Shown: piece after piece, positions 1-56,402 of the stretch | Layout: each line of letters begins with the position of its first letter | Numbering within the stretch: the first letter of the stretch is position 1 | From: a virus | Taxonomy: Duplodnaviria > Caudoviricetes | Length of the DNA: 64,000 nt | IMG/VR virus record: IMGVR_UViG_2721755587_000001 | Direction: 5' to 3' (one strand) | The notes under the pieces: generated by a model | What the model saw: only the letters and a program-made list of their open reading frames with translations | Databases searched by the model: none | Told to the model about the DNA's origin: nothing | Position numbers and translations under genes: made by a program

Positions 1-1098
1 TCAATCCCAAGGTAGGCTAACGTCCATCTCAGAGCGTTCAGGGAACGCCTCCTTGATGTAGATCGCGGTCGTCTTTGCGGTCGTATGGGCTAGCCGTTTC
101 TGGATATCGGCAGCGTCATTTCCATCCCTGGCAGCGTCGGTTGCGCCCAAGGCTCGCAAGTCCTTGAAGACTATTTGATCCGTTACCTTCGCCCGAGATT
201 TGGCGCGTCGCCACATGGAATGCAGGCCCGTTTTAGAGTAGGGCGTTCCGGCCTGACTGGGAAAGAGATAGTCCGTCTTCACTCCATATTTTTTCTTGAT
301 CGCCTTGGCTCGGTCGATAACCACCTGAATGTGGGTCGTGATAACGACATGGACCACCTTGCCGCTGCTGCCGGCGGTCTTGGATGGTTTGAAGCGGATG
401 ACGCCGTCTGAGATTTGGCTCTCGGTCAGATTTCTGACGTCTGTGCCCCGTTGCCAGACCAGGTAGGCCATGTCGATGATGCACTGGAACATCGGGCCGG
501 ACTCGGTCGGTAACTTGTCCTCGCCGACGAGGGCGGCCGCCCGAATCCGCTTGATGGCGTCATGAGTGGGTAGGACCTCTCGGCGCTTAGTCTGGTAGTC
601 GGAAAGGTCCAGGTTATCGCAGGGGTTGTCTTCCCTGAGGCCAAGTTCACTAATCGCCATCTTGAACATCTTTCGGAGGACGTTAGCGTACTTCTGGGCC
701 GAGTTCGCCTTGTCGGAGAAGTTGTCTCTGAGGAAATCGGCGCATGCCTTGGTCGTCACATTGGCCACGAAGAAATCCCGGAAGCTCTCACTGATGGTGT
801 CTGCCATCCGCCCATAGTCAGATTGCACGCTGTCGGTGTACCGCTTGAGCTTCCGCGCCTTCCATTCCGTACAGAGGTAAGGCATCGACCCATCGACCAG
901 GCGCTTGTCCGTGAACAACTCGCTCAGTCGGCTGAACATCTTGCCCTCGCCATCGTCCACCCGGCACAGCTGGATGAGGCGCTGTGTCTTGCCGGTCCAA
1001 GGATTGCGCATGGGGGCGGGCGCGGTGAAGTAGTAGGCTCCGTGGTTGACGATAACGCGCTTCGGCAACCCCTTGTGGCCCTTTCGTGCTCGGCCCAC
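1..1098 (-). CDS. int: Tyrosine recombinase / phage integrase
   Basis: Catalytic motifs: R (WQRGTD), K (PSKT), FKDLR, LAH...TAIY. Confidence 0.92.
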   Translation of the reverse strand: MGRARKGHKGLPKRVIVNHGAYYFTAPAPMRNPWTGKTQRLIQLCRVDDGEGKMFSRLSELFTDKRLVDGSMPYLCTEWKARKLKRYTDSVQSDYGRMADTISESFRDFFVANVTTKACADFLRDNFSDKANSAQKYANVLRKMFKMAISELGLREDNPCDNLDLSDYQTKRREVLPTHDAIKRIRAAALVGEDKLPTESGPMFQCIIDMAYLVWQRGTDVRNLTESQISDGVIRFKPSKTAGSSGKVVHVVITTHIQVVIDRAKAIKKKYGVKTDYLFPSQAGTPYSKTGLHSMWRRAKSRAKVTDQIVFKDLRALGATDAARDGNDAADIQKRLAHTTAKTTAIYIKEAFPERSEMDVSLPWD

Positions 1099-2486: not shown

Positions 2487-3665
2487 TCAGGTTGTATGGG
2501 AGCGATATGCCTTGGTTAGTTGGCGGTTCACTGAATGCCCGCGCTTGCGGACAATGTTTGCGAAGCGAGCCCGATCCGTATGGCTGCCCGTCGCTTGGCG
2601 AAGGAGTCCGAAGTAGCTGTTGGCGGCCGCATGTAAGTCAGCGGCATCCATTTGCCGCAGTCGACGCGCCCCTTCATTGACTGTTCGGGGCCGAGTGGTG
2701 CGTACCCATGGGCTAATGACTTGACCGACAAAGTCGATGCCTCGCTCGACAGGCTGTAGGATGGTTTTGGAAGGATTCAGCCGAGCGCCCAGTTCGCGAG
2801 GCAAGAAGGCTTCGATGTCGTCATGCGCTGCGTTCAGCCACTGGGGCGACTCATGCAGGAGCACGAAGTCGTCCACGTAGCGGACGTAGTGGCGGGCGCG
2901 CACCTGGTGCTTCGCATGCTGGTCAAGCGAGTCAAGGTACACGTTCGCAAAGAACTGGCTGCTCAGGTTGCCGATCGGTAGGCCTCGATGCGCTGGCTGG
3001 TTCAATAGACTCTTATACGGCGGTACCAGCGCCAGCAGTTCGGCCGGCGCTTGCATTTGGACATCCGGGCGCGGATCATGCATCAACACCAATTCGGTCA
3101 GCCACATCCACCAGGGCTCGGTGATACGTGCGGCGAGTTGCGCGCGTAGCACGCGCTTGTCGATGCTGACGAAGAAGTTCGCCAGGTCGCATTTCAGGTA
3201 CCAGGCCGGCCGCGCCCAATTCTTCGTGACACTGCGCACCTTGGACTCGAGGCGGCGCGCGGCGTACAGAGTGCCACGGCCAGGAATGCATGCGCAGCTA
3301 TCTGCGATGAACGAGGCATAGAAGCGCGGAGAAATGTGGTTGTAGAGTAGGTGGTGCACCACACGATCGCGGAAGTCGGCAGCCCATACCTCGCGCGGCT
3401 TCGGGCGTGTGACCACGAAGCAGATCGATCTGCCGGGTCGATAGCTTCCATCGGCGAGCTCGTCGGCAAGCCGGCATAGGTTCCGCTCTAGGTTCTGCTC
3501 GAAGGCGAGGGCATTGTGGGTGTTTCGCTTGTTCTTCCGACAATCGAAGTAGGCCACCACCAAGTCCTCGAAGGAAAAACCAGCAGGAACCGCATCGGCA
3601 TGATCTGCGGACGGCCCGGGCGCGAAACTCGCTACTCTTGTGGTTGTTGTTCTGATTGCCATCAT
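2487..3665 (-). CDS. DGR reverse transcriptase (start uncertain; nearest in-frame ATG is 3665, inside the TR; frame open to 3920)
   Basis: RDRVVHH, YLKCD..NFF, GLPIGNLSSQ (DGR-type GxxxSQ), YVRYVDD, GIDFVG. Confidence 0.95.
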   Translation of the reverse strand: MMAIRTTTTRVASFAPGPSADHADAVPAGFSFEDLVVAYFDCRKNKRNTHNALAFEQNLERNLCRLADELADGSYRPGRSICFVVTRPKPREVWAADFRDRVVHHLLYNHISPRFYASFIADSCACIPGRGTLYAARRLESKVRSVTKNWARPAWYLKCDLANFFVSIDKRVLRAQLAARITEPWWMWLTELVLMHDPRPDVQMQAPAELLALVPPYKSLLNQPAHRGLPIGNLSSQFFANVYLDSLDQHAKHQVRARHYVRYVDDFVLLHESPQWLNAAHDDIEAFLPRELGARLNPSKTILQPVERGIDFVGQVISPWVRTTRPRTVNEGARRLRQMDAADLHAAANSYFGLLRQATGSHTDRARFANIVRKRGHSVNRQLTKAYRSHTT

Positions 3666-3712
3666 TGAAGTTCTGATTCCACGCGTTGTTGGAGTTGCTA
3701 GCGGACTGCGTC
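3603..3712 (-). repeat. DGR template repeat (TR), 110 nt
   Basis: Reads TQSASNSNNAWNQNFNDGNQNNNHKSSEFRARAVRR (10 AAY codons); matches two VRs except at its adenines. Confidence 0.96.
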
Positions 3713-3882
3713 TATTCGTGCTATCTACGTCGCCTCGCCGAAGGCCTGGGCCGATCAGTGGGGAAACTGCGCCAGACCAGCCCTGGTGACTCCCAGCGGT
3801 ATCTGTGATGCGCATGGCGGTGGCCTTGTGAGCCAGCGGCACGACCAGATTAAAAATCGCACGGGCATGACCGCCTTGACGG

Positions 3883-4236
3883 TCATGCAACAGGCGACGA
3901 TGCGGCTCTCCGCCATCCATTGGCTTGCTTCCCGATACTGTTGGTAAGCACTACGGTCTTGGCATACTGCTGCCTAGAGATGAGCCGCTTGTCTACCGAT
4001 AAGCGCAGCAGAAGCTCAGTCACCTGAAGGCGTTCGATCAGGTCCAGTAGATGCGGAGATTTCTCTCGGGCCGTGTTCGCCCGAAATATCAGGACGGTGA
4101 TCTTCACGCACTCGTCGCGGATGACTCCGCCAATCGACGCCTTGTAGTCACGAGGCATATTCTTGGCGAGGTCCGTGACGGCGTCGAGCAGGTCGTATGC
4201 CACCTTGTAGATCGGAAGGCTGGTATGGATGGCCAT
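3883..4236 (-). CDS. avd: DGR accessory variability determinant (Avd-like four-helix bundle)
   Basis: 117 aa; LPIYK..YDL...MPR.YK..IG...IGKQANGW; lies between target and TR. Confidence 0.9.
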   Translation of the reverse strand: MAIHTSLPIYKVAYDLLDAVTDLAKNMPRDYKASIGGVIRDECVKITVLIFRANTAREKSPHLLDLIERLQVTELLLRLSVDKRLISRQQYAKTVVLTNSIGKQANGWRRAASSPVA

Positions 4237-4253
4237 GCTGAATGACTAAATAA

Positions 4254-4880
4254 TCAAGGGACTAATCTGCGGACGGCCCGGGCGCGATACTCGCTACTCT
4301 TGCGGGTGATGGTCTGACCGCCATCACCGAAGGTCTGATTCCACGCGAAGCCGGAGTTGCTAGCGGACTGCGTCGAGGACCAGTGCCATGCCTTCTCGAA
4401 GAGTTCGGGAACATTGGCGTACATGAGACTCAACTCGCGACGTGCCGGCAGATAAAAGTCGGAGTGGCCATCGATTGACAGGCTCCGTGCCCACTGCGCT
4501 GCCGGGTGGGCATGGCGGGAGCAGGACAGTGCCTCGGTGTTTGCCCAACCGTCGAACTCGCTCTTTGCGCCGGTCTCGTCATGGTCAGCACTGCCCCATG
4601 CGATCTCTTCTACCGATGCGTCGGGGTGCGTCGGCACGATCAGGTGATAGTCTGTCTGCCCGTTCTCGCCGCGCATTACCCCGGCATACACGCCTCCCTG
4701 GCCGGCCCATATCTCGCCGATGCGGGGAGTACTGGTGCTTTGCTTGGCGGCAGGTTCCGCTCCTGTTACAAGGCTGTCCAGCCATGCCCTCATGACCGAC
4801 TTCGCGGGAAGGGTCACTTGTGCTTCGCCGACCTGGAAGGTCACGTTCTCTGCAACGTGCGTCATTGGTGTTCGCTCCAC
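4254..4880 (-). CDS. DGR target protein 1, DUF1566/C-type-lectin-like (ATG start possibly 4865)
   Basis: GGVYAG, DFYLPARREL, WHWSSTQ...RARAVRR; C-terminal VR. Confidence 0.9.
   Translation of the reverse strand: MERTPMTHVAENVTFQVGEAQVTLPAKSVMRAWLDSLVTGAEPAAKQSTSTPRIGEIWAGQGGVYAGVMRGENGQTDYHLIVPTHPDASVEEIAWGSADHDETGAKSEFDGWANTEALSCSRHAHPAAQWARSLSIDGHSDFYLPARRELSLMYANVPELFEKAWHWSSTQSASNSGFAWNQTFGDGGQTITRKSSEYRARAVRRLVP
4265..4374 (-). repeat. DGR variable repeat VR1
   Basis: 110-nt match to TR; 13 mismatches at TR adenines plus 1 non-A mismatch. Confidence 0.95.
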
Positions 4881-4925
4881 TGAATAGGTAAAGGAAGGCC
4901 GCTGGCGCGGCCAAGAATGACTGAA

Positions 4926-5579
4926 TTACTGAATTTTTAATCTGCGGACGGCCCGGGCGCGAAACTCGCTACTCTTGAGGTTGAGGCTCTGAAAGCCAGC
5001 ATTGAAGCCCTGAACCCACGCGTCGTAGGAGTTGCTAGCGGACTGCGTCGAGGACCAATAGGGCTCGGCTTCCAGTACCTCACTGCCATCTTCCTGGAAG
5101 AGCAGAACACGGGTCTGTGTGGGGAGCTCCTCCGTATAGGCATATCCAGCCGGAGCGCTGCTGGGGTTCTCACCGTCACGGAAGCCGGCATAGTTTCCGG
5201 CGGTGGGCTTGAGGTTGCGATAGATGAGCTCCAACTCGTCACGCGCCGGGAGGTACCAGTCGTGATTCCCGTTGACCTGCAAGCCAAGCGCCCATTTCGC
5301 GAGATCGCTTCCGGCCTCCGCCATGGCAGCGGTATTGGCCGCGCCGTCAAAGTAGCTGAGCGCGCCATCGACGCGGCTACGATCACTGTTCCAGACGCTT
5401 TCGGCGTGCTCGCCAGTACCTTTGGGGGCGACGATGAGCGCATAGACTCCATCGGCTTGTCGGATCTGCCCGGCGTAGAATCCGCCGCCTGCTGCATCGC
5501 CGGCTCGGAGGGAGTCGGCTTCAACCTGGCTGATGGTGGTCTGTACGGCGCTTGCTTCAATTGTTGTGATCGCGTTCAT
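4926..5579 (-). CDS. DGR target protein 2, DUF1566/C-type-lectin-like
   Basis: GGFYAG, DWYLPARDEL, YWSSTQ...FRARAVRR; paralog of 4254-4880. Confidence 0.9.
   Translation of the reverse strand: MNAITTIEASAVQTTISQVEADSLRAGDAAGGGFYAGQIRQADGVYALIVAPKGTGEHAESVWNSDRSRVDGALSYFDGAANTAAMAEAGSDLAKWALGLQVNGNHDWYLPARDELELIYRNLKPTAGNYAGFRDGENPSSAPAGYAYTEELPTQTRVLLFQEDGSEVLEAEPYWSSTQSASNSYDAWVQGFNAGFQSLNLKSSEFRARAVRRLKIQ
4940..5049 (-). repeat. DGR variable repeat VR2
   Basis: 110-nt match to TR; 13 mismatches, all at TR adenines. Confidence 0.96.
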
Positions 5580-11147: not shown

Positions 11148-12317
11148 TCACTGCATGTCAAAGGAACGCTGCTGCCTTTGCCGGCGAGGCTGGGCAGAGT
11201 CTTGCTGTGCGCTCGCGTTCGGTTGGCGCTTCGCTGCGATTGCGTCCTCGATCTGGACCTTCTGTTCGAGTGGGAGGCTGCGAGCGATGTCGTTGGCGGT
11301 GTCGAAGTCGCCAGATTTGACAGCGTCCATGGCGATGGCCAACATGTCCGGCGCATCCTTTTTTGAGCCGGCCGGCTCCGAAGAGGCTGTAGCGGAGCCG
11401 ACGGTGGTGGTTTCCAGCTCGCTCTCGGTAGCGGTCGCAGTGGTCCTAGCGACGGGATTGGGCTCAACCGTCGTAGCACCCGCGTTCTTTTCGGACTGTG
11501 GGGCGGCGCTTGGCGCTGAGGTAGAGCGGGTGGCGTCGAATTCGGCCGCATACTTGCCGTCCGGCTGCTTCACCACATCAATGATGTCTTCATGCTCCTC
11601 CGTGGTCTTGCCCATGCCCATGACGATGTCAGGAGCATGGGTGTCGCCGAAAAAGGAGCCGGAACGATAGATCAACATCAGGTCACGCAGACTGGTCTGC
11701 CATTTGCTGCCAGGCTTGGCGTACCAGCCTTCTTCGACGGCCATCTTCATACTGACGGGGACAGACTCGACCAGCTCGTCAGTCTTCTTGCCATCCTCGA
11801 TGCGGTAAGCCCAGGCCACGCATTCGATATCGTCCACTGTGACCTCGCGCTCAGCCATGTCATAACGGCGAAGCTCGTCGTTCCAGCCAGTCTTCTCAAG
11901 GTACTTGGCCGAGATACGCCCCCGGTTCGTGATGCGAAAGCGAAGACGCGTGAACAGCCCGGACGCGTTGATAGCAGCAATCTTGAACTTGCCACTCCAA
12001 CGAAGCTTGCCCTCGATGATGTCGGCGTTCTGCATTACCGCAGTGATCGACATGCCGACGGTCTGGGCCGTCTCGATTGCCACCAGGCAATTGCCGAATG
12101 CCGAAGGGTTCTCGATCTCAGTGACCTTCCCATTGACCTTCTTTTCGATGAACTGGCGAAACTGAGCCGGCACAGCGTTGGAGGTCTGGTATGCATTGGC
12201 GATCCGCTGCGCCAACGCGAAACCTCGGCCAGTGAACAGGTCCAACCGTACATCCTGGTTTGCGGGAAGAGCGAGGGAACTCTCGCGAAGTTGGTTGACG
12301 TCGGCTTGATTGCCCAT
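11148..12317 (-). CDS. RecT/Red-beta-like single-strand annealing protein
   Basis: VPAQFR..GNCLVA...VMQN..II.GK, MAV.EGW..K.GSKW, ML.YR; adjacent to a nuclease. Confidence 0.7.
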   Translation of the reverse strand: MGNQADVNQLRESSLALPANQDVRLDLFTGRGFALAQRIANAYQTSNAVPAQFRQFIEKKVNGKVTEIENPSAFGNCLVAIETAQTVGMSITAVMQNADIIEGKLRWSGKFKIAAINASGLFTRLRFRITNRGRISAKYLEKTGWNDELRRYDMAEREVTVDDIECVAWAYRIEDGKKTDELVESVPVSMKMAVEEGWYAKPGSKWQTSLRDLMLIYRSGSFFGDTHAPDIVMGMGKTTEEHEDIIDVVKQPDGKYAAEFDATRSTSAPSAAPQSEKNAGATTVEPNPVARTTATATESELETTTVGSATASSEPAGSKKDAPDMLAIAMDAVKSGDFDTANDIARSLPLEQKVQIEDAIAAKRQPNASAQQDSAQPRRQRQQRSFDMQ

Positions 12318-12346: not shown

Positions 12347-13183
12347 TTATGCGTGGTAGGGGCAGCGCGGGTAACCAGCACACCACGTCTTGGTGCAGGT
12401 GAAAGCGCCGGGGTTTGGTCGGAAGAGCCCGTCCTTCAATGTCTTGGCCGCCATTTCAATCATTCCGACATACCCTTCCTTTCCGAGGAGGGCGGTCTTG
12501 ACGTCAGGGATGTCTGCTGCCGCAATGGGGGCTTCTTTGGTCGTGCTCAGGCCCACGATCTCGGCTGGGGCCTCCAACTGCTCGTTGAGAGCGACTTCTG
12601 CCATCAGCGTGTAGATGCCGACCTGCAGGTGGTGCGCGCCGATGGCCGCGCGCCTGGTGCCGTCGTCGTTCTTCTCGGTGGCCTGCTTACCGGACTTCAG
12701 GTCCGTGACGCCACGCCGCAGATCCGGTAGCTCGCGGACCCGGTCGATCGTCCCCGTGGTACGCACTACCCCGTAGTCGGTCCGGATGTCCAACGCCGCG
12801 CAGCGAGTCTCGATCGCGACGTAGTGCCTGGTCGGTGCGAATTCGTTGCAGTACTTCGTCGTGAGCTTGATGACGATGGCCTCAGCGTCCTTGAAGTCCT
12901 TCACGTCATCCCAGGCAACCTCTTCCTCCGGGTTATGAAGGGACGCCATGGCGACGGCCACCGCCTCTTCGACGCTTGGTTCCTCGCCACGCAAACGGGC
13001 TGCATCAAAGACGGCCGTTCCAGCGTGGATCGCGGTACCGGTTGCCGCAACGCCTGTTGATGGGATCCGAAGTCCCATGACATTCGAGTAGTACCAGGAC
13101 AACTCGCAGCCGAAGAAACTCTTCCAGCTGGATGCGCGGACAGTGCCGAGGATGTCGCGGACCGCATTCGTGATTTCGCTCAT
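12347..13183 (-). CDS. PD-(D/E)XK RecB/Cas4-like exonuclease
   Basis: GTAIH, GTIDR..DLKSG, QVGIY; C-terminal C...WC..C cluster. Confidence 0.82.
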   Translation of the reverse strand: MSEITNAVRDILGTVRASSWKSFFGCELSWYYSNVMGLRIPSTGVAATGTAIHAGTAVFDAARLRGEEPSVEEAVAVAMASLHNPEEEVAWDDVKDFKDAEAIVIKLTTKYCNEFAPTRHYVAIETRCAALDIRTDYGVVRTTGTIDRVRELPDLRRGVTDLKSGKQATEKNDDGTRRAAIGAHHLQVGIYTLMAEVALNEQLEAPAEIVGLSTTKEAPIAAADIPDVKTALLGKEGYVGMIEMAAKTLKDGLFRPNPGAFTCTKTWCAGYPRCPYHA

Positions 13184-13721: not shown

Positions 13722-14207
13722 TCACTTGCGAGTTCGTCTGACCCTCTTCGTAGCTGGCTGACCAGAGGGTTCTGTGGCATGACTTTGAGATGTCTTCCCT
13801 CGCGTGATTTGCTTAGTTACCGAGGGTTCTACCTTAGTAATCAACTCTGACGGCTCATGAGGAGTGGGGCTACTTCTAAACTCTTGCTCGTTGATTACAT
13901 GCTTTATAAAGGCCTCGACTCGAGCCTTCTCATAGTCAGGTAGCCGCGCGTAGCGATCCATCTCATAGTTTATGCCGGCAGAGTCCTGTCGTATAAGTTC
14001 GCCTGGATCTCGACCAAAGGCGAGACCTAGAGCTTCGAGAATGTCGATGGTGGCTGAGACCTTTCCATTCAAGACTCGGCCGATCGTCGTCTGCCCAAGG
14101 CCCGAAGCATCCGCGACCTTCATCTGAGTGTCTAGATCTGGCCGCTGTGCCATCCATCGGGCCAGCGTCGTCGCCAAAACCATACGGATTGGTTGATGTT
14201 TGTCCAT
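13722..14207 (-). CDS. CI-like XRE HTH repressor
   Basis: TQMKVADASGLGQTTIGRVLNG HTH; divergent from a Cro-like gene; AT-richer. Confidence 0.8.
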   Translation of the reverse strand: MDKHQPIRMVLATTLARWMAQRPDLDTQMKVADASGLGQTTIGRVLNGKVSATIDILEALGLAFGRDPGELIRQDSAGINYEMDRYARLPDYEKARVEAFIKHVINEQEFRSSPTPHEPSELITKVEPSVTKQITRGKTSQSHATEPSGQPATKRVRRTRK

Positions 14208-14414
14208 GGTGATCTAAGAATTTTTAAATTTTAGGTATAGCCACACAAGGCGCATTATAGCCGCGTTCCGTGTGCTCTAAATTGCTCACGAAACTTTTCA
14301 ACCAATCTTGCATGGATAGCCATATAGGACTAAACTTAGGCGTGGTGGCCTTAGTGGCGTGTGGCTATATGTCATTCTATGGTGCGCGCAACGTATACAA
14401 AAGGGAATTCGAAG

Positions 14415-14720
14415 ATGCAGACTCCAGAACCCATGCTGGACTTTGTGATGCGCAAGCATGACGTCTACTACCACCGGAAGCGCGAAGAACTTTCCGCGAA
14501 GAGTGGGGTCCCGCGTCACACGCTCAACAAAGTCCTGCAGGGCCGCACCAAGCAGCCTCTCGCCAGCACGGTGCAGAGGATCTACGACGTCCTCGTAGCT
14601 GCAGAACGCTCGGCAAAGCGAAAGGTGCACAAGAGCGGATCAAATATGGCGGATTTTCTCGCGCAAGAGGCGGCAAAGCGTCTTGGCAACGCGGGACAGG
14701 CCGTTTGCGATGCCCCATGA
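14415..14720 (+). CDS. Cro-like HTH regulator
   Basis: EELSAKSGVPRHTLNKVLQGRTKQP; divergent from the repressor. Confidence 0.7.
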   Translation: MQTPEPMLDFVMRKHDVYYHRKREELSAKSGVPRHTLNKVLQGRTKQPLASTVQRIYDVLVAAERSAKRKVHKSGSNMADFLAQEAAKRLGNAGQAVCDAP

Positions 14721-15697: not shown

Positions 15698-17026
15698 ATG
15701 AATTACTACGAGCGCTACGTGGGTGACATCCAACGGGACACCGGGCACCTCTCCTGCGCAGCCATGGGCGTGTATGACCGCCTGCTGGACCACTACTATG
15801 CGACGGAGCGGGCCCTGCCTGCCGACATCGATGCGCTCTGTCGCATCGCACGTGCGATGGATGCGACAGAGCGCAAGGCTGTAGAGGATGTAGTGCGCGA
15901 GTTCTTCCAGCTCGAGGGCGATAGCCTCTATCACCAGCACCGTACCGACGCTGAAATTACCAAGGCGCAGTCCCGCATTGAGGCGGCCCAGGAGAATGGG
16001 AAGCAGGGCGGCAAGGCGACAGCGAAGAAGCATCAGAGCGTCGCATCGCCTGGGTCGCTATATGCGATACGACTGTCGCATGCGACGGTCAAGGTGGGCG
16101 TCAGCACCAATTTCCGAAGCAGGTTGCATCAGCATCGAAAGAAGATTGGTCACCATGTGACCATGGTCCACGTTGTCGCTGTGGATAACATGGGCGAGGC
16201 CTTTGCCGGCCTGAAGAAATCCCTTGGTATTCAGGATGATGCGGACACCTTCGCGCTAGAGGTAGCGCACGAGTCCACCCTTAAATCCTTCATGGATCTC
16301 TATTTGTCGCATACCCAATCCTATGCGACTGGCAATGCGAGTCGCATTGCCAGTCGCACGGCCCACCACACGCCATACACCATTACTACTAGTAGAGAAG
16401 ATAGTGGTGATATGGAAGGCAGTAGCAAGAGCGATGCGACATGCGACTTCACATCACACTTGCTGAATGCGACAACAGGTGAAGCCAACCCGAGGGACGT
16501 CCAACTGGCGATCCTGCTGCGGAAGGGGTATGGGATGGACGCCAGCAGCGGCTCGGTTGAGGTGATCGAGATGGTTCAGCTCGCAGTTTCCGATCGCGAG
16601 ATCCTGGATGCAGTCGAGAATTTCCGGATCAAGAAGCCTGGCGATACGCCCAATGCCAGCTACATCCTGAAGATGATCAAGAGCGTCCGGGAGAAGGCTG
16701 CAAAGGCTGCGGCGGCGGCCAACGGCACTGCATCGAGCGGCGGTGCGCCCGCGCCGGCAAGCACGGACTGGTGGCATTTGGAGGAGGGCGTTCGGACCAA
16801 GGCAGTCGAGTTCAACGTTGTGCAACGCGTCGACAAGAACGAGCACTACCGGTCCTTTCGCATTCGGGTTTTCAAAGCCGCAGGTGAGGGCCCCTGGCGA
16901 GAGGCGGCACTCAGCGAAGCGGCACGCGATAACTCCGAGGAGCACGCTCGCGTCTTTGGGTATTTCTACGACCAGCCACCGGCTCAGATCGGTCAACTCG
17001 CGCAACGGGCGCAAGAGGCGGCATGA
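15698..17026 (+). CDS. DUF1376/YdaU-like replication initiator with an internal GIY-YIG-like segment
   Basis: MNYYERYVGD..RDT.HLS...GVY.RLLD.YY; internal LYAIR...VKVG.S.N...RL.QH. Confidence 0.8.
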   Translation: MNYYERYVGDIQRDTGHLSCAAMGVYDRLLDHYYATERALPADIDALCRIARAMDATERKAVEDVVREFFQLEGDSLYHQHRTDAEITKAQSRIEAAQENGKQGGKATAKKHQSVASPGSLYAIRLSHATVKVGVSTNFRSRLHQHRKKIGHHVTMVHVVAVDNMGEAFAGLKKSLGIQDDADTFALEVAHESTLKSFMDLYLSHTQSYATGNASRIASRTAHHTPYTITTSREDSGDMEGSSKSDATCDFTSHLLNATTGEANPRDVQLAILLRKGYGMDASSGSVEVIEMVQLAVSDREILDAVENFRIKKPGDTPNASYILKMIKSVREKAAKAAAAANGTASSGGAPAPASTDWWHLEEGVRTKAVEFNVVQRVDKNEHYRSFRIRVFKAAGEGPWREAALSEAARDNSEEHARVFGYFYDQPPAQIGQLAQRAQEAA

Positions 17027-17991
17027 AGGCGCACATGGGCATTCCGGCCGGCCAGCGTAACGCGGAGGTGGGAGGCGAGCTCGTCATGCGGGTCGGAATC
17101 CCGCACAAGGGCGGAAAGCTGGCATTCCACGCCTTCAACGAAGGGTTCCCGGCCATGGTCAGCGCAAATGCCTTCTGGAATCCAGCGGCTGGGGGCTTCC
17201 AGTTCCCTCGGGCGACGGACGTCTCGGAACTGGACTTCGCGATGGATAGCGCTGGCTATACCGCGATGAAGATGTGGCAGTCGAAGGGGCAACAGCGGGG
17301 CATGGCGGGTATCTTCCCCTGGACGTACTCGCAATACATCGAGTTCGCGACGCAGTCCGGAGCATCCTGGTGGTCGCAGCCCGATCTGTGCTGCGAGCCC
17401 GAAATTGCCCACAACCAGGAGGAAATCGACTTCCGGATAAATGCCACGGCTACCCTGCTGGAGGGGGTGCTGCGCATTCTCTATGAGTGGCAGAACGAGC
17501 TCGCGAGGACCTGCTCCTCCGCTGTCGTCGCTCATATGCTGAAGCCGCCTGTTCCAGTTCTCCAGGGGTGGTCAGCAGGCGACTACAGGCGCAGCCTGGA
17601 GTTGCTCAACGCCGTTTGGGAAAGATGGCAGCCATGGCTGGCCACGCCGGCGCTCATCGGCGTTGGCTCGGTGTGCCGGCGGACCCTGAAGCACCCAACC
17701 CACGGACTCTTCTCAGTTCTGTCAGCGCTGGAGGGTAATTTGCCTACCGGGTCGCGGCTTCACCTCTTCGGCGTGAAGGGGGCTTGCCTGGCAGAACTCA
17801 AAATGCTCGACTGGGTCGCGTCCGCCGACTCGATGGCCTACGACTATGGGGCGAGAGTGAAGGCGCACCAGACTGGGATCTCGAACTCGATCGCGCACCG
17901 GTCTACGGAGATGAGTCGATGGATGTCGACAGCCTCGGACCTCGTGAGGCCGGCCGCCGGCGATCAGTTCCGTCTGAACCTCTTTGGGTGA
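17023..17991 (+). CDS. DpdA/TGT-like 7-deazaguanine DNA transglycosylase
   Basis: MDSAGY, DLCCEP, PVLQGW, IGVGSVCRR, LHLFGVK, SADSMAY motifs of the TGT-like barrel. Confidence 0.75.
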   Translation: MKAHMGIPAGQRNAEVGGELVMRVGIPHKGGKLAFHAFNEGFPAMVSANAFWNPAAGGFQFPRATDVSELDFAMDSAGYTAMKMWQSKGQQRGMAGIFPWTYSQYIEFATQSGASWWSQPDLCCEPEIAHNQEEIDFRINATATLLEGVLRILYEWQNELARTCSSAVVAHMLKPPVPVLQGWSAGDYRRSLELLNAVWERWQPWLATPALIGVGSVCRRTLKHPTHGLFSVLSALEGNLPTGSRLHLFGVKGACLAELKMLDWVASADSMAYDYGARVKAHQTGISNSIAHRSTEMSRWMSTASDLVRPAAGDQFRLNLFG

Positions 17992-19113: not shown

Positions 19114-19655
19114 CTCCGACCTACGTTGTTGAGCGCGCGCGCCTCTTCGCCTCCGCTGCCCACGCAGCGGTCGGTCAGCGCCGCAAGTACACCCTTGAGT
19201 CCTATATCGTGCATCCGGCAGAGGTAGTTGGGCTGGTCCGGTCGGTGCAACACACCGACGAGATGCTCGCCGCCGCCTGGCTGCATGATGTCGTTGAAGA
19301 CACCAAGGTCGAGATCGCTCAGATTCGGGCGGAGTTTGGCGAGACTGTCGCACGTCTTGTCTCAGCTGTGACCGATATTTCGCTGCCGGAGGACGGTAAC
19401 CGGGCTGTGCGCAAGACAATTGACCGGGATCACCTCGCCTGTGCGCCTGCACAGGCGAAGACGATCAAACTTGCAGATCTGATCAGCAATTCCCGGAGCA
19501 TCCTAGCGCGTGACCGCGCGTTCGCGATGGTCTACATCCAGGAGAAGGCAGCGTTGCTGGACGTACTGAGGGACGGCAATCCATCGCTTCATGCCGTGGC
19601 GGCGCGAATCGTCGCCGACGCTCTTGAGCGTTTTGGCGAGGCCGAGCAGGCATGA
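19110..19655 (+). CDS. HD-domain small alarmone hydrolase-like ((p)ppGpp hydrolase, Mesh1-type)
   Basis: AH..Q.RKY...YIVHP.EV, WLHDVVEDT, IKLADLISN. Confidence 0.85.
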   Translation: MTPTYVVERARLFASAAHAAVGQRRKYTLESYIVHPAEVVGLVRSVQHTDEMLAAAWLHDVVEDTKVEIAQIRAEFGETVARLVSAVTDISLPEDGNRAVRKTIDRDHLACAPAQAKTIKLADLISNSRSILARDRAFAMVYIQEKAALLDVLRDGNPSLHAVAARIVADALERFGEAEQA

Positions 19656-20968
19656 TCGTTCCGTTCTCCCTTCATTTGGGCGATTGCTTGGACGTCCTGC
19701 GGACGTTGGCGGAGGCCTCAGTCGATGCAATCGTTACTGACCCGCCATACCACCTCACGGACAGCTCGCGCGGAAGCCACGCGCGATCAAGCAATCCCGC
19801 CATGCCCCATGGCCGCCACCGCATCGGTGACAAAGGGTTCATGGGCAAGGTATGGGATGGCGGCGATATCGCACACCGCGTCGAGCTCTGGTTGGAATGC
19901 CTGCGGGTGCTCAAGCCTGGCGGCCACCTTCTGGCCTTCGCCGGCACGCGGACCTATCACCGGATGGCCTGCGCTATCGAGGATGCAGGCTTTGATCTGC
20001 GCGACCAGTTGGGCTGGCTGTATGGATCTGGCTTCCCCAAGTCCCGCAACCTGGATGGTCAATGGCAGGGCTGGGGCACGGCACTGAAGCCGGCTTGGGA
20101 GCCAATTTGCATGGCGCGGAAGCCGCTGGCCGGAACTGTTGCCGCGAACGTGCAGGCCCACGGCACCGGCGCGCTCAATATCGACGCGTGCCGCGTGGGT
20201 ACCGACGATGCGCTCCGTGCCGGAGCCGGAGGGACGTGGGATGCCATGCACAAGCATGAGGGTCGTGGCCGCGCCGGTGAGGCCAGCGCTGAGCGCCGCT
20301 ACACCAGCCAGGGCGGCACTGACTTCGCAATGAAGCCCGGCCCTCGCGGCGGGGACGCCGCCGGCCGCTGGCCCGCTAATGTCATCCACGATGGCTCGCC
20401 GGAGGTGCTGGCGGCCTTTGCTCAGTTTGGCGAGAACAAGGGGCAGACCGCCGCTCTCGCGACCCGGAACAGCGACAAGACCCGGAACACATTCGGTACT
20501 TTTGCCGGTCAGACCGATGCCGAGTTCCAGCCCCACGATTCGCTGGGTTCTGCCGCCCGTTTCTTCTACTGCGCTAAAGCGAGCCGCACGGATCGCAATG
20601 AGGGCTGCGAGCACCTCGAGCGTCAGCCGCTGCACTGGTCGAATGGGGTACAGAACCCGGGGTCCTTCCAGTCAGAAGGTACGGACAAGACGAGTCAGAA
20701 CAATCACCCGACTGTGAAGCCTACGGAATTGATGGGCTACCTTTGCCGGCTGGTGACGCCTCCTGGCGGCGTAGTGCTCGATCCGTTCATGGGGTCTGGA
20801 TCCACTGGTAAAGCCGCGATGCGCGAGGGCTTCCGCTTCATCGGCATCGATATGACGGCTGAATACCTGGGCATCGCCCGCGCGCGAATTGAGCACGAGC
20901 TAACCATCAGGCGGGTGGAGTCAGTGGAGGTATCCGTGCAGCCAGACCTGTTCGGTGCCGCAGCATGA
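19652..20968 (+). CDS. DNA N6-adenine/N4-cytosine methyltransferase (beta class)
   Basis: TDPPY near N-terminus, HPTVKP, VLDPFMGSGSTG. Confidence 0.92.
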   Translation: MIVPFSLHLGDCLDVLRTLAEASVDAIVTDPPYHLTDSSRGSHARSSNPAMPHGRHRIGDKGFMGKVWDGGDIAHRVELWLECLRVLKPGGHLLAFAGTRTYHRMACAIEDAGFDLRDQLGWLYGSGFPKSRNLDGQWQGWGTALKPAWEPICMARKPLAGTVAANVQAHGTGALNIDACRVGTDDALRAGAGGTWDAMHKHEGRGRAGEASAERRYTSQGGTDFAMKPGPRGGDAAGRWPANVIHDGSPEVLAAFAQFGENKGQTAALATRNSDKTRNTFGTFAGQTDAEFQPHDSLGSAARFFYCAKASRTDRNEGCEHLERQPLHWSNGVQNPGSFQSEGTDKTSQNNHPTVKPTELMGYLCRLVTPPGGVVLDPFMGSGSTGKAAMREGFRFIGIDMTAEYLGIARARIEHELTIRRVESVEVSVQPDLFGAAA

Positions 20969-23634: not shown

Positions 23635-24675
23635 ATGACCAACAACGAGCCAGTTTTTCCGATCCTGCCGCCCGATTGGGATGGATCGCCGCCGGCGAAC
23701 ATCGTCAGCCCCTTCTTGCCGCAGCCTGCGCCGTTTAGCCAGGCGTTTATGCTTGAGCAGTCGCTGTTCCAGCATCCGGTACCAGGAAGCACATTCTCGC
23801 TGGAGCAGGCATTCCAAAGCCCGTCCCTGCCAACCAAGGTATTCAAGCCACCTGTGATTGGGCAAACGATCACTGTGGATGGGAAGATCTTTACGATTGG
23901 GGCGCAGGTTGGCGGCGGTTGGTTCGGTAGTGTCTATACGTGTTCGGATGAATGGAACAACGCTCTGGTGGCCAAGGTTTTGGTGCCTAAGGATCAAACG
24001 TACGAGCAGGTACGTGAGAACTGGATGCGAGAGCTAAAGAACCTGCTGCATCTCCGGCACCCAAATATTACCTACGTGCATGCTGCGTTCGAATGGGAAG
24101 ATACTTTTTACCTGATTATCGAACGCTGCACGTGCACGCTTGACCAACTGATCAGCTATCAAGGCCTTCAGCCGGATGCATGGATTCCCCACGTTGGGAG
24201 GGATATCTTGCAGGGGCTTGACTATATTCACGATCAAGATTATGTCCACAAAGATATTCATCCAGGCAACGTTTTCGTAGCGCAGACGTTTGATAGGATG
24301 GTCCCGGGCAAGGAGCCGGTTTGGTCATACAAGATAGGTGATCTGGGGATATCCCGTCTCGAACACGAGATCAACGTTTTCAACACGGTGCTCGCGGAAT
24401 GGATGATGCCACCAGAGGCCCTGGATCCGATGCAGTTCGGAATCGTAGGGAAGCGAACGGACATCTACCATGTCGGCTTGCTGCTGCTGGCGCTACTGTT
24501 TAACAGGATGCCAACTTTCTCGCATCAAGATATTCTTGCGGGTGTGCCGCGTCAGATGGCAGAGAACCACCCATCGAGGTTCGGCCGGGTGATTGCTAAG
24601 GCGCTGCGCCGTCATGTTGCGGATCGCACAGGGTCCGCAATGGAATTTTGGCGAGAGATCCGCGCTGCGATTTGA
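23635..24675 (+). CDS. Hanks-type Ser/Thr protein kinase (moron)
   Basis: GGGWFG, VAK, HKDIHPGN, DLG, PPE, DIY..G; AT-richer; followed by a terminator. Confidence 0.9.
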   Translation: MTNNEPVFPILPPDWDGSPPANIVSPFLPQPAPFSQAFMLEQSLFQHPVPGSTFSLEQAFQSPSLPTKVFKPPVIGQTITVDGKIFTIGAQVGGGWFGSVYTCSDEWNNALVAKVLVPKDQTYEQVRENWMRELKNLLHLRHPNITYVHAAFEWEDTFYLIIERCTCTLDQLISYQGLQPDAWIPHVGRDILQGLDYIHDQDYVHKDIHPGNVFVAQTFDRMVPGKEPVWSYKIGDLGISRLEHEINVFNTVLAEWMMPPEALDPMQFGIVGKRTDIYHVGLLLLALLFNRMPTFSHQDILAGVPRQMAENHPSRFGRVIAKALRRHVADRTGSAMEFWREIRAAI

Positions 24676-26091: not shown

Positions 26092-26342
26092 TGCTGGATT
26101 TCCTGCTGAACGCACTCAAGTGGTACGGGATAGTAGTTGGCAGCGTCTTTGGGTTCATGATCGCCTTCGTGGTGGTCATGCTCCTGGTCTTGTCCATATC
26201 GATCCGGGCTGCCTCTCCCCGCCAGGTCATCTTGGTAGTCCGAGAGCAGGGGGAAGGGAAGCCCAGAGGCTTGAAGAAGGCGACGCGAGTGAAAACGCAA
26301 TTAGCCGCCACTCAGGGAACCGAACAGAAGGTGGTTGATTGA
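26088..26342 (+). CDS. Small membrane protein
   Basis: One long hydrophobic segment. Confidence 0.5.
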   Translation: MMLDFLLNALKWYGIVVGSVFGFMIAFVVVMLLVLSISIRAASPRQVILVVREQGEGKPRGLKKATRVKTQLAATQGTEQKVVD

Positions 26343-27355
26343 CCGCTCCCGCTAAGAAGACCCCGAAGAGGTCCGCGACTTCCCGGAAACCCGTGGAAGG
26401 GAAGAGCGCTGTCTCGAAGGCTAGCGTACCGAGGAAGGTGCCTCCGGCAAAAGCAAAGTCCCCTGAGGACGTGAAGCGCGTCCGCCAGGCCGCCGCTCAA
26501 CACGCCCGGGAGGCGAGGACCGAAAAGAGAAAATCCCTCGCAGTTGCTATCGCGGCGGATGAGAGTATTGACCCATACCAAGGCCTGCCTGAACGGCAGC
26601 GCCGCTTCGTTGACGAGTACCTCATCTCGCTCAACGGCACCGATGCCTATAAGAAGGCCGGTTTCTCCGTCAAGTCTGACAAGGTCGCTGGGGTCAATGC
26701 CTGCAAATTACTAGCAGACCCTAGGATCGCTCGCGCCATCGATATCCGAAAGAAGGCACGCCAAGAGCGTACTGAGATCAGCCAGGACGTTGTCCTCAAG
26801 CACCTGATGGGCGTCGCCTTCGGGGATGCCAACGAATTGGTGGAGTTCCGCCGTCGCTGCTGTCGATACTGCTGGGGGATGGGCTACCGATACCAGTACA
26901 CCCCTGCGGAGTTCGAGAGCGTGCTTGTGGCACATCAGCGTGCCTGTCGCGAGGCTGAGAAGGAAGACAAGCCACTGCCTCCAGAGCCTGATGAGCGTGG
27001 CGGCGTGAACTTCGACGGACGGAAGGCTCCCAATCCCGACTGCCCGGAATGCTTCGGTGAAGGCCGGGGCTACGTCTTTGTGCATGACACCGGCAACCTC
27101 CCGCCCGAAGCCCTGGCGCTGTATGCCGGCGTGAAGGAAGGGAAGGAAGGTATCGAGGTCAAGACCAAGTCTTCCGACAAGGCCATCGAGATGTTGGCCA
27201 AGCACGTGAACTTCTACGAAGAGAAGGTGCAGGTCAACGTGACCACCGCCACGCCGCAGGAACTGGACGCCATCTACAAGAAGCGCATGGAGGAGACTGC
27301 CAAGCAGGCTGCCTCAGTTGCGCACCGGTCCACCCGCCCGAAGACTGAAGACTGA
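26339..27355 (+). CDS. terS: Terminase small subunit
   Basis: RQRRFVDEYL..LNGT.A...AG, RCCRYCWG, PNPDCPECFGEG, KA.EML.KH. Confidence 0.85.
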   Translation: MTAPAKKTPKRSATSRKPVEGKSAVSKASVPRKVPPAKAKSPEDVKRVRQAAAQHAREARTEKRKSLAVAIAADESIDPYQGLPERQRRFVDEYLISLNGTDAYKKAGFSVKSDKVAGVNACKLLADPRIARAIDIRKKARQERTEISQDVVLKHLMGVAFGDANELVEFRRRCCRYCWGMGYRYQYTPAEFESVLVAHQRACREAEKEDKPLPPEPDERGGVNFDGRKAPNPDCPECFGEGRGYVFVHDTGNLPPEALALYAGVKEGKEGIEVKTKSSDKAIEMLAKHVNFYEEKVQVNVTTATPQELDAIYKKRMEETAKQAASVAHRSTRPKTED

Positions 27356-37750: not shown

Positions 37751-39265
37751 GTGCCGGCAGCAAAGACGCTTCCTGAAGACCCCCGCTGGCTGGGCTTTGT
37801 CGATCGCTATGCGTTCGATCTGACGCGCTTCGCAATTGAGGTGTGCGGGATGACCTGCACACATCAACAGATCGACCTCTTCGAATCCATCAACCCGGCC
37901 GGCTCAAGGACGTCTGTTTCATCCGGACACGGCACCGGGAAGACGAGAGCCATTGGTATCACGGCGTTGTGGCATCTGCTGTGCTACTTCCTCAGTAACA
38001 CGATGCTGACCGCGCCGAAGATAGAGCAGGTCCGCAACACAGCTTGGAAGGAGATCACCGATATCAAGGACCTGGTCCGCGCCGGCCCGCATGGGTGGAT
38101 AGCGGACTACTTTGAGGTCGAGGCTGAGCGCGTCTACGTAAAGGGCTACAAGCAGCAGTGGTTCATCATTGCCAAGACTGCCCCGCGCGGCTCGCCAGAG
38201 AATCTGGCGGGTATGCACCGGGACTGGTACCTGGTGATAGCCGATGAGGCCTCGGGCATCCCGGACAACAACTACACGGTGCTGACGGGCGCGTTGACAG
38301 ATGCCCGCAACCGGATGTTGCTGACGAGCCAGCCGACGCGAAACGTGGGGTTCTTCTACGATACGCATCACTCCCTGTCGAAAGCGGAGGGTGGGCCGTG
38401 GAATGCCCTCGTTTTCAACTCGGAGGAATCGCCTCGGGTATCGGACGAGTTCATTCGGGACAAGAAGCTCGAGTACACCGATGTGGAGTACCAGATCAAG
38501 GTGCTCGGCCGGTTCCCCGAGAACATGGACGGTTTTCTGCTGGGGCGCAGCCAGCTCGAGGCTTGCTTCGACAAGGAGGTAATCGGGGACGGCCTGCTTT
38601 ATGGCTTTGTCGCTTCGGCTGACGTAGGGGCCGGCGAATACCGGGACAAATCGATTCTGGTGCTAGCGAAGGTGTCCGGCTATGGTGATTTCGGGCCGGA
38701 CGCGAGACGGGTGCAGGTATTTGGTATCCCCATCATCACGAACACTCGAATCATTCAGGACTTCACTGGTGACGTGTTTCACCAGGTCGCTGAAATTGAG
38801 AGCGCGACCACCCTGGTTGATGCCGGCGGCATGGGGGTGGCGGTCTGCCAGGGTTTAGAGACAAAGGGCTTGCCCAATGTCATACGGGTGAAGTGGGGTA
38901 ATTCCTGCTTCGGTACGAAAAACAAGGAGCGCTTCTTCAATCTGCGCGCGCAGGCCATGGTGCATGCATCTCGGGCGGCCAAGGAAGGCCGGCTGGGCAT
39001 TGTCTCAGGGCCCTGGCGCAAGGACATTCTGGATCAGGGGTCCCGCATCCCCTACCACTTTGATGAGAAGGCGCGCTATGTCATAGAGAAGAAGGAGGAT
39101 ATGCGGGCTGCCGGTATTCCATCTCCAGACATCTGGGACGCAATCTGTTTCCTATTCCTGGAAGACGCCAACTACATCATCGCTGAGTCAAGTTCGACTC
39201 CGGAGGTGGTGACGAAACGCGACGAGGCAAGGAAGGAGGCCGAGGATATGTTTGCGCATGCTTAA
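37751..39265 (+). CDS. terL: Terminase large subunit (P1 PacB-like)
   Basis: SGHGTGKT Walker A, IADEASG Walker B, SQPTR, ADVG and VDAGG nuclease Asp residues, SPD.WD. Confidence 0.9.
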   Translation: MPAAKTLPEDPRWLGFVDRYAFDLTRFAIEVCGMTCTHQQIDLFESINPAGSRTSVSSGHGTGKTRAIGITALWHLLCYFLSNTMLTAPKIEQVRNTAWKEITDIKDLVRAGPHGWIADYFEVEAERVYVKGYKQQWFIIAKTAPRGSPENLAGMHRDWYLVIADEASGIPDNNYTVLTGALTDARNRMLLTSQPTRNVGFFYDTHHSLSKAEGGPWNALVFNSEESPRVSDEFIRDKKLEYTDVEYQIKVLGRFPENMDGFLLGRSQLEACFDKEVIGDGLLYGFVASADVGAGEYRDKSILVLAKVSGYGDFGPDARRVQVFGIPIITNTRIIQDFTGDVFHQVAEIESATTLVDAGGMGVAVCQGLETKGLPNVIRVKWGNSCFGTKNKERFFNLRAQAMVHASRAAKEGRLGIVSGPWRKDILDQGSRIPYHFDEKARYVIEKKEDMRAAGIPSPDIWDAICFLFLEDANYIIAESSSTPEVVTKRDEARKEAEDMFAHA

Positions 39266-40854: not shown

Positions 40855-41629
40855 AGAGATGAAGCCCGGTGCGCAGGCACTGACCGTTGCCAGATGGACC
40901 GGATCGGTCTCCCAGCACGCCAATGGCGGGTTTGTCGCGGTCAGCGACTACATGGCGTTGGCGAGCGAGCATGACAGCTGGAAGCGCATGTACGAGGACG
41001 CCGTCCGCAGCCTAGCTTGCATTGATCAGGCTCTGGGCATCCCGGCTGACGAGGCGGGCGGTGCCGCGCCGATCCTGGCGGAAATCGAGCGCCTGAAGGA
41101 AGGAGCGAAGGTGGCCGGAGTTGATGCCAAGCACGAGGCCCTGGAGCTCACTGCGCGCTCCATTGCTCACGGCAACGCGAATGAGTGGGCTGCCCAAGAT
41201 GGAAAGGTCGGTTCTCTGATCGAAAGCGAGTTCTACCCGTTCATCGAAACGGACGTTGCCGCCTACACCGGCGATGATGCTGACGATGAGCGCTTGCGCG
41301 CTTACCTCGCGGCAGCCAACCCAAACACTGTCTTGGAGCTCTTCGATTGCGTTCGCGCGGTCCGGGCTAGTGCTCAGGCCACGGTCGCGCGCCCGCTGAT
41401 GGATGCGAAGTACGGAAACGAGGGATATCACCCGTTCGCGGTTGCATCCATGCCGAAGCTGGGGCTGACGGACGATTTCGCGGGAGACAACGTGCACTTG
41501 GTTCGATGCATTGAGGCCCTGATTTCGCTTGATGCGAACGGCAGTTTAGTGCCGCACGGCATAGGCTGCCATGCGCGCACGCTGCTATCCGCATCGGCAG
41601 TACGGCTCGCCCGGCAGGAGCGCGCATGA
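40847..41629 (+). CDS. Ea22-like mosaic hypothetical protein
   Basis: YLAAANP.TVLEL motif. Confidence 0.55.
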   Translation: MNEEMKPGAQALTVARWTGSVSQHANGGFVAVSDYMALASEHDSWKRMYEDAVRSLACIDQALGIPADEAGGAAPILAEIERLKEGAKVAGVDAKHEALELTARSIAHGNANEWAAQDGKVGSLIESEFYPFIETDVAAYTGDDADDERLRAYLAAANPNTVLELFDCVRAVRASAQATVARPLMDAKYGNEGYHPFAVASMPKLGLTDDFAGDNVHLVRCIEALISLDANGSLVPHGIGCHARTLLSASAVRLARQERA

Positions 41630-47047: not shown

Positions 47048-47502
47048 TTCCCCCTCCTGCAGTACGTTCGGTCCTGACGTGAATTCTAAGGCAACAGGAG
47101 ATCAGGCCTCTTGTTGGGGAAGATGGAAAACGGCGTTCCGCTGACTCAATCCCGTATCCCAAGATGAATCCATGCCACCCCGGAAGATCGTGCAGTCGGG
47201 TCACGCGGGTGAGGGGTAAATCGCCCGGACACATGACATGGCGCGGGGCCGTGTCAATCCGACACCCCGCTACGGCAGCGCCCAGCGCGAAAGCGTAGCC
47301 CGATGGGCGCACCACCCAAGGAGATTGAGCATGTGGTTTCCCGTTTGTGTGTTCCTATGGGCCGGTGTCTTCGTGTCTGCCTGTGGCTGGCCGAGCGACG
47401 ACGGTTGAGGCATGCCATGAAACTCACCCCGGCTTACCGGACCCAAGCGATCGAGGAAGGTGGACTGCCGGTCCCCGGCGAGTTGGCGCAACGGAGCGAG
47501 CT

Positions 47503-50050: not shown

Positions 50051-50052
50051 CC

Positions 50053-50931: not shown

Positions 50932-51054
50932 GGCCGAGCAGATCGAGCGGTAGGCATCCCGGCGAACTGGATATCGATTTCGGGAAATTGCACGGTTCGG
51001 TGGCTGCCCCAGATTGTTATCTTGCGGCTATTGAGCAAGGGCACTGAAAGAGCT

Positions 51055-53196: not shown

Positions 53197-53204
53197 GGTG
53201 AAGT

Positions 53205-53906: not shown

Positions 53907-53977
53907 GCGCCGCATGATACAGAGGGAATCTGCGCCGCTTGTGAAGGGCGCCTTGGCCTTCGCGCGGCTTTGTATGG

Positions 53978-55088: not shown

Positions 55089-55245
55089 CTTCAGCAGATT
55101 GAGATCAAGTAGGCCCGCGGCGCGGTCCAATCTGGCAGCGAGTATACGGTGGCTGCGTATTCTGGGATCCCCCAGTTCGGGGGGGTACGCATCTCCACCG
55201 GAGCCGGTTTTCGGCAAATAGCCGCACCAGGGTGGCTTTTTTATC

Positions 55246-56400: not shown

Positions 56401-56402
56401 GG

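Follow-up and report, generated by a model that had tools for sequence, protein, structure and literature searches.

A complete two-target retroelement

The viral record IMGVR_UViG_2721755587_000001, whose 64,000 nucleotides are referred to here as the window, carries at positions 2487-5579 a diversity-generating retroelement (DGR) in which one template repeat (TR) feeds two variable repeats (VRs) by ordinary, adenine-specific mutagenic retrohoming. The components lie on the minus strand in the order target 2-target 1-avd-TR-reverse transcriptase (RT), an order that had been proposed in a first-pass annotation of the window and that was confirmed by open reading frame (ORF), Pfam, and PHROG annotation. 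The locus combines an RT with the expected motifs, an adenine-specific TR/VR pair, an Avd protein, and VRs at the C termini of targets with a C-type lectin fold. Every part of the BPP-1-like layout that the annotation had called complete (RT, Avd, TR, two VRs, and both targets) is present, and the locus is an intact DGR of what we term the Magia-type clade, situated inside a prophage integrated at a tRNA-Pro gene.

The TR (3603-3712, minus strand) gave a gapless three-way match with VR1 (4265-4374, minus strand) and VR2 (4940-5049, minus strand), and these coordinates agreed to the base with those given earlier. Thirty-four of the 110 TR bases are adenines. Each VR departs from the TR at 13 of these adenines, the number originally reported, and those of VR1 are confined to TR 3641-3690. 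VR2 has no other change; VR1 has one, at TR T3626, which has become A and replaces Phe with Tyr. Taking the two VRs together, 26 of the 27 mismatches fall on TR adenines, for which the binomial probability is ~1e-12 given that A accounts for 34 of the 110 positions. Eight sites are altered in both VRs, and because the two carry different bases at seven of these eight, VR1 and VR2 were homed independently, as the first-pass annotation had argued.

The adenines of the TR are placed where they matter for coding: in the reading frame of the targets, 33 of the 34 occupy codon position 1 or 2. The TR holds 10 AAY codons in this frame. One VR or both depart from it at 9 of these, and the 9 AAY-templated codons make up most of the 11 codons that are diversified in total. 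The VRs finish 11 to 14 nt ahead of the target stop codons (11 nt in the case of VR1), which puts them at the C terminus of each target, and the diversified codons sit on the C-terminal face of both ~200-amino-acid (aa) lectin-fold proteins. A TR search of the whole Cupriavidus-like host genome (8.42 Mb in two contigs or replicons) returned VR1 and VR2 and no third VR.

Reverse transcriptase, Avd, and candidate cis elements

The conserved core of the RT (2487-3590, minus strand) comprises 367 aa and matched Pfam RVT_1 with 59.2 bits and PHROG 1423 with an E value of 3.8e-123. A YxDD catalytic motif and an [I/L]GxxxSQ motif are hallmarks of DGR-type RTs, and the translation contains YVDD and IGNLSSQ. 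Avd (3883-4236, minus strand; 117 aa) matched Pfam bAvd PF22296 with 50.6 bits (cut-off, 40) and PHROG 3206, "Avd protein of DGR," with an E value of 6.8e-33.

The start of the RT gene is less easily placed. The RT frame stays open upstream across the TR to an ATG at 3920 (ORF 2487-3920), such that it is free of stop codons from the avd stop across the entire TR (3590-3920, minus strand). Among related loci, 123 of 137 likewise have a stop-free RT frame that begins ahead of the TR start; only 10 loci offered an in-frame ATG in the interval from the TR end to the RT core, and the median distance from the TR end to the conserved RT N terminus was 13 nt. Judged from these frames, either the RT would begin at a non-ATG codon just past the TR or the TR would also encode an N-terminal extension of the RT.

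At their 3' ends, both VRs share with the TR an 18-nt stretch consisting only of G and C (TR 3607-3624). Beyond this stretch, the VRs part from the TR and run into an AT-rich repeated heptamer element that is absent 3' of the TR. The copy directly 3' of VR1 (4237-4264, minus strand) reads TTGATTATTTAGTCATTCAG, and that 3' of VR2 (4915-4939, minus strand) reads AAATTCAGTAATTCAGTCATTC. VR2, unlike VR1, is also accompanied downstream by a G+C hairpin with a 4-nt loop, GGCCGC-GCCA-GCGGCC (4897-4912, minus strand), which recurs with the same sequence in Cupriavidus relatives L004 and L006. We regard these as candidate cis elements of the initiation of mutagenic homing (IMH) type. Across the clade, at least two heptamers stood 3' of 204 of 332 VRs, compared with 1 of 151 TRs.

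The targets are small lectin-fold proteins without export signals

Target 1 (4254-4865, minus strand; ~203 aa from an ATG at 4865, in an ORF open to a GTG at 4880) and target 2 (4926-5579, minus strand; 217 aa) are stand-alone DUF1566/C-lectin proteins, the former with an N-terminal extension of ~55 aa. They are paralogs with 34% identity (E value, 9e-26). Target 2 matched Pfam Lcl_C with 45.3 bits, above the cut-off of 34.9, and PHROG 4245 with an E value of 9e-33; target 1 scored 32.2 bits against Lcl_C, which is under the same cut-off, and matched PHROG 4245 with an E value of 5e-34. Both PHROG matches fall in the C-terminal part of PHROG 4245, and no Mtd or tail family was found among the Pfam and PHROG matches of the targets. 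Modeled by AlphaFold2 on the basis of 32 orthologs, target 2 had a predicted local distance difference test (pLDDT) score of 87.9, and its best PDB match in a fold search was 8q4e, the C-terminal domain of Legionella Lcl, followed by C-type lectins. This placement came from the fold search alone, since searching PDB chains with the target 2 sequence returned nothing useful. Outside the VR, the scaffold is well conserved, with 28 invariant and 27 near-invariant columns among the 32 orthologs.

To look for export or lipoprotein signals, we used a crude hydropathy measure (a 19-residue Kyte-Doolittle window with a threshold of 1.6) rather than SignalP. By this measure, neither window target has a signal-like hydrophobic stretch (maximum hydropathy, 0.6 to 0.8), nor does either have a cysteine at the N terminus. 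The earlier description of the targets as paralogous, ~200-aa, DUF1566/C-lectin-like proteins without a signal peptide was therefore upheld. The clade gave a similar picture: no segment with a hydropathy of at least 1.6 was present in 223 of 237 targets, and only one target has a hydrophobic run of at least 9 residues in its N-terminal part; clade targets are single lectin-fold domains with N-terminal extensions of 20 to 55 aa.

Tyr (20%), Asp (16%), Gly (15%), Asn (14%), and Ser (9%) predominated at the AAY-templated sites of 294 distinct VRs, and Cys, Ala, and Pro were nearly absent. This composition is paratope-like and could reflect selection, the error spectrum of the RT, or both.

A few targets in the clade carry N-terminal fusions. 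DUF551 (Pfam E value, 2.1e-12) is present in L100 (7962-8870), a Cys-rich segment that looks zinc binding is present in the targets of L138 (7816-8820) and L160 (7811-8821), and an N-terminal domain of ~85 aa is found on the targets of the L008/L101/L022 group. These fusions may offer clues to what the targets do.

Both target types also occur in the Pseudomonas phage Medea1 (MW862109; L174, 6581-8400), where they lie in the early region behind ERF/YqaJ/SSB genes and are 46 to 48% identical to those in the window. Medea1 has neither RT nor Avd, and an HNH-like gene stands in their place. One of its targets has a degenerate 3' element, and one retains a G+C-rich and AT-rich 3' element and a hairpin. 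The Medea1 proteins look like orphaned DGR targets, which would mean that target proteins are retained even after loss of the mutator.

The cassette lies in the leftward arm of the prophage

All of the genes from ~14.2 kb to position 1 of the window point leftward. In the direction of reading, they are an HTH (helix-turn-helix) repressor-like gene (13722-14207, minus strand), an exonuclease (12347-13183, minus strand), a RecT-like annealing protein (11148-12317, minus strand), a DUF5131-type gene, an AAA_23 ATPase, a UVR-motif protein, the cassette itself (both targets, avd, TR, and RT), three small ORFs, and a tyrosine integrase (1-1098, minus strand; Pfam Phage_integrase), which is the final gene of the unit. 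The exonuclease and the RecT-like protein are early recombination genes that lie upstream of the cassette and are read in the same direction. Facing the HTH repressor-like gene is a Cro/repressor-like gene (14361-14720, plus strand), and a promoter-like site (14281-14254, minus strand) precedes the former; together they form an immunity-type divergent region (13722-14720). The leftward unit thus runs from this region near 14 kb to the integrase, and the cassette is inside it, which supports its earlier placement in a leftward operon. A tRNA-Pro(GGG) gene lies ~100 nt outside the window start. On the basis of the gene order and the tRNA-Pro gene at the window edge, we place the cassette in the nonstructural leftward arm of a tRNA-integrated prophage, and the gene order suggests that this arm is what the first-pass annotation called the early operon.

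The gene at 59508-60728 was confirmed as a tail fiber gene. Since the genome-wide TR search yielded only VR1 and VR2, the tail fiber is not diversified, again in line with the initial account. No repeat of at least 16 nt from the tRNA-Pro region, such as would mark attR, was found in the window or in the 16.7 kb past it.

A clade of related retroelements in temperate phages

With the RT core as the query, species-representative genomes yielded 241 confirmed loci, and viral contigs yielded 376; the 160 loci that were kept have RTs 64 to 89% identical to that of the window. The closest RT (89%) belongs to a Cupriavidus ulmosensis locus. Ordered from the nearest, the hosts are Cupriavidus and then Burkholderia, Paraburkholderia, Janthinobacterium, Massilia, Pseudomonas, and many metagenome-assembled genomes, and clade loci are found in both Beta- and Gammaproteobacteria. 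Among sequenced phages, 11 records have RTs at 64 to 69% identity: Magia (two records), vB_E192a, vB_PL1, LPPA56, Haboob, phPA-G, Cruim01, SC_8_H2H8_2017, vB_Sb_QDWS, and zrk29-1. The remaining sequenced-phage RTs were at most 36% identical, that of BPP-1 being at 32%, and the boundary of the clade is sharp.

Gapless scoring of the TR against each locus identified 332 VRs in 161 loci, all of which share the strand of the RT and lie upstream of it. Most often there were two VRs to a locus (90 loci), then three (41), one (17), or four (3), and 10 loci had none. The VRs carried a median of 13 adenine mismatches, and 282 of 327 had no mismatch at any other base. The targets had a median length of 194 aa, in a distribution whose upper tail is inflated because many "long" targets are wrong-frame ORF calls in high-G+C DNA and real N-terminal fusions are few. 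From the VR counts and the median length across these loci, two small targets are the norm for the clade.

A census of neighboring genes, in which all ORFs of the loci were clustered and representatives were searched against Pfam and PHROG, showed that an integrase lay within 7 kb downstream on the same strand in 62 of the 85 loci having at least 6 kb of flanking sequence and that 40 of 103 loci had an S24 CI-type repressor upstream on that strand. Other recurrent neighbors were a C5 methylase, ParB-N, DUF2303, a dNMP phosphatase, an HNH endonuclease, a RecE/YqaJ exonuclease, and DUF5131. Beyond avd and the RT, no neighbor was conserved among the clade loci. A defense system with an adjacent effector was set aside as an explanation of the cassette, since avd and the RT were the only genes conserved as neighbors.

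Four annotated phages, Magia, vB_E192a, LPPA56, and Haboob, already show the early-arm layout. This architecture is standard for a large clade of RTs, and the first-pass annotation overstated matters in calling the context unusual. Its phrase "next to the integrase" is accurate for the window, in which 1.4 kb separates the cassette from int, and does not hold as a rule: in Haboob, the cassette is near the CI repressor and 11 kb from int. The placement in Haboob implies that adjacency to int is incidental and that the interval from repressor to integrase is what persists. Nor is the module tied to one tail type. It is shared by Magia, a myophage (PMC7883833), by Cruim01, a siphovirus (PMC11256456), and by Haboob, which has a lambda-like siphovirus tail with a tape measure protein and TipJ; it therefore travels with the early arm and not with the tail type.

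Natural evidence of recent homing in related loci

Adenine-biased VR variation was found among related loci. The viral contigs of loci L085 and L086, whose TRs are identical, match at 99.2% over 2643 nt, with 20 differences. Fourteen of the 20 are concentrated in a single 107-nt VR (L085, 9207-9313; L086, 366-472), and all 14 are at TR adenines. L121 and L034 similarly showed 15 and 16 VR differences, at adenine sites only. Because near-identical loci differ chiefly at the adenine sites of their VRs, we take the clade to be active in nature and the L085/L086 pair to be natural evidence of recent homing. For the window copy itself, the intact ORFs, catalytic motifs, TR, and candidate cis elements suggest that it, too, may be active.

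It might be supposed instead that the window cassette is a frozen relic, its VR differences being a record of past homing. We consider this highly improbable. The intact parts just listed speak against it, and the proposal concerns the activity of the cassette rather than its identity, so that it is compatible with any view of what the targets do. Some observations do lean the other way: VR1 has its one non-A mismatch, the attR end was not found within 16.7 kb past the window, and Medea1, with both target types, degenerate 3' elements, and no RT or Avd, indicates that DGR loss occurs.

A proposed role for the targets inside the cell

The explanation that we favor, to which as a whole we assign a probability of roughly 0.55, is that the locus is a Magia-type DGR of the early arm that diversifies cytoplasmic binding proteins. 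The cassette would be transcribed together with the leftward, repressor-proximal, nonstructural arm (repressor, recombination genes, targets, avd, TR, RT, and int). Expression would then come early after infection or induction, during replication of the phage DNA, and progeny genomes would thereby carry fresh VR variants. Having no export signal, membrane segment, or tail-docking domain, the targets would stay in the cytoplasm, where, as single-domain proteins of hypervariable sequence, they would bind some variable molecule of the host or of a competitor and would not serve as receptor-binding proteins of the virion.

We lean, at somewhat better than even odds, toward the part of this explanation that gives the targets a nonvirion role inside the infected or lysogenic cell, which is favored by their gene position, by the lack of export and docking domains, by the independence of tail morphotype, and by the fact that one target of Magia is the first gene of its leftward operon. 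What the targets might bind is a more speculative matter. The leading guess is that their ligands would be variable host defense or takeover targets, to be inhibited. That the targets bind and neutralize variable host factors, in counterdefense or takeover, is a tentative suggestion that we would not expect to prove correct, and we are equally doubtful that the clade amounts to an antibody-like repertoire on the side of the phage, made up of early-operon, cytoplasmic lectin-fold binders directed against variable defense or takeover targets. If that antibody-like view were true, phage lineages would adapt to new intracellular barriers as BPP-1 does to new receptors.

Several points weigh against the favored explanation. 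The terms "early" and "cytoplasmic" draw on gene position and sequence, and virion proteins likewise lack signal peptides. DUF1566 domains cap the C termini of many phage tail fibers, and C-terminal tail fiber domains are among the structural neighbors of target 2. A homolog in phage PMBT3 sits at the end of a lysis/structural block, and the 20- to 55-aa N-terminal extensions could serve as docking peptides. As for the activity of the window copy, VR1 has evidently not been rewritten since its non-A mutation arose.

The tail fiber domains, the PMBT3 homolog adjoining lysis and structural genes, and a conserved N-terminal extension on type-1 targets, as a possible docking peptide, would all suit the alternative that the targets are accessory adhesins, that is, early-arm lectin proteins that attach noncovalently to tail fibers or the baseplate, as T-even gp38 attaches to gp37, with the DGR switching receptor specificity as in BPP-1. 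Receptor switching in BPP-1 is, moreover, the sole experimentally shown function of a phage DGR (PMC5758913). We nevertheless regard this alternative as unlikely. No structural gene family recurred within 10 kb in the 161 loci, the module is common to phages of different tail types, the targets lack trimerization and fiber attachment domains of the Mtd type, and some relatives fuse the lectin domain to DUF551 or Cys-rich N termini instead.

The recurrent position of the cassette downstream of a CI-type repressor, on the same strand, raises another alternative, namely, that the targets would be expressed from the prophage in the lysogen and, as hypervariable proteins of the cytoplasm, would serve the host by sensing or blocking phages that superinfect it or other mobile elements. 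The Haboob cassette comes after a glycosyltransferase of the lysogenic-conversion type, which would accord with this proposal, and ties between cellular DGRs and defense-like proteins have been proposed (cited in PMC8008677). However, the targets have no fused effector domain, only avd and the RT are conserved nearby, and a binder by itself does not make a defense system. We rate a lysogen-side function as quite unlikely.

Comparison with known systems

The nearest described counterpart of the window locus is the Burkholderia cenocepacia phage Magia (MT701587), in which gp44 is the RT, gp45 is Avd, and gp46, gp47, and gp57 are the targets. Its announcement noted a possible DGR, naming genes 47 and 57 as its short targets, and offered a guess about host range (PMC7883833; Microbiol Resour Announc 2021). 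Beside it belong the cassettes of vB_E192a, vB_PL1, LPPA56, Haboob, phPA-G, Cruim01, SC_8_H2H8_2017, and vB_Sb_QDWS, which have gone without comment. Magia and these phages share with the window the order small targets-avd-TR-RT, the location in the leftward nonstructural arm between repressor region and integrase, and short lectin-fold targets without export signals. Magia differs in having targets of 120 to 155 aa plus one remote target, whereas the window has two adjacent targets of ~200 aa; the hosts also differ, the window lying in a Cupriavidus-like genome.

BPP-1 (mtd-avd-TR-brt) resembles the window in gene order, in Avd, in A-specific transfer from TR to VR, in the location of the VR at the C terminus of a C-lectin fold, and in a G+C-rich candidate element and a hairpin 3' of the VR, the hairpin being found in the window behind VR2 only. 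In contrast, its RT is only 32% identical, as noted above, and its target, Mtd, is a 381-aa trimeric protein of the tail fiber tip encoded in the tail module; the window has two single-domain DUF1566 targets in the early arm and VRs in no tail gene. The DUF1566/CLec2 targets grouped by Wu et al. in 2018 as "category d," about half of which are short proteins with only that domain (PMC5758913), are a further point of comparison. These targets, including Legionella LdtA, share with the window a VR within a DUF1566-type lectin fold, but LdtA, a surface lipoprotein, has an export signal, unlike the window targets, which have none and are encoded in the predicted early operon of a prophage.

A precedent for a phage DGR target outside the structural module is Quimbyvirus, described by Benler et al. 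in 2021, whose target lies in a defense-related island near methylases and nucleases; a role in phage-host conflict was proposed, and earlier phage targets were said to be structural (PMC8008677). Quimbyvirus differs from the window in its Bacteroides host, its additional structural target, and its frameshifted RT, whereas the targets of the Magia-type clade all appear to be nonstructural. Roux et al. in 2021 classed viral nontail targets as "unknown" (PMC8144416).

Literature searches for DGRs with counterdefense and for DUF1566 with antidefense or early genes found nothing specific. A 2024 survey (PMC11661182) contains nothing on the Magia-type clade, and the DGR goes unmentioned in the papers on Cruim01 and vB_E192a. 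We found no paper that treats the early-operon clade as such, and the layout is mentioned only in the Magia announcement. The window copy is one of hundreds and adds to the clade a Cupriavidus-type host and a clean two-target example, and little more. The clade itself is very large, with members in hundreds of temperate phages that infect Burkholderiales and Pseudomonas; its DGRs rewrite small, signal-less, early-arm proteins, predicted to be binders, and never tail genes. Should these targets prove to work within the cell, intracellular conflict of phage and host would have targeted hypermutation as a tool, and the targets would be natural scaffolds for the evolution of cytoplasmic binders. 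Culturable members, such as Magia, Haboob, vB_E192a, and Cruim01, are better suited to experiments than the window copy.

Other features of the prophage

A TGT/DpdA-like gene (PHROG 1279) lies immediately behind the replication initiator, and the prophage also encodes two large DNA methyltransferases (17023-17991, 19652-20968, 41626-43422); it thus appears to be heavily committed to DNA modification. Kinase- and phosphatase-type genes are present as well, one being Ser/Thr kinase-like (PHROG 2361) and the other a NinI-like Ser/Thr phosphatase gene (PHROG 246) (23635-24675, 47347-48186).

Terminase-like genes are present at both 26.3 and 37.8 kb (26339-27355, 37751-39265), and baseplate, tail fiber, and O-acetyltransferase genes occupy 48 to 63 kb, with big plus-strand ORFs that run on past the window (48617-64000 and L173). 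No portal or capsid gene was found among the window proteins scanned. Perhaps the late region is mosaic, or perhaps the prophage is longer than 80 kb. A tRNA-Gly(UCC) gene lies within the prophage at 45726-45799, in a region poor in long ORFs.

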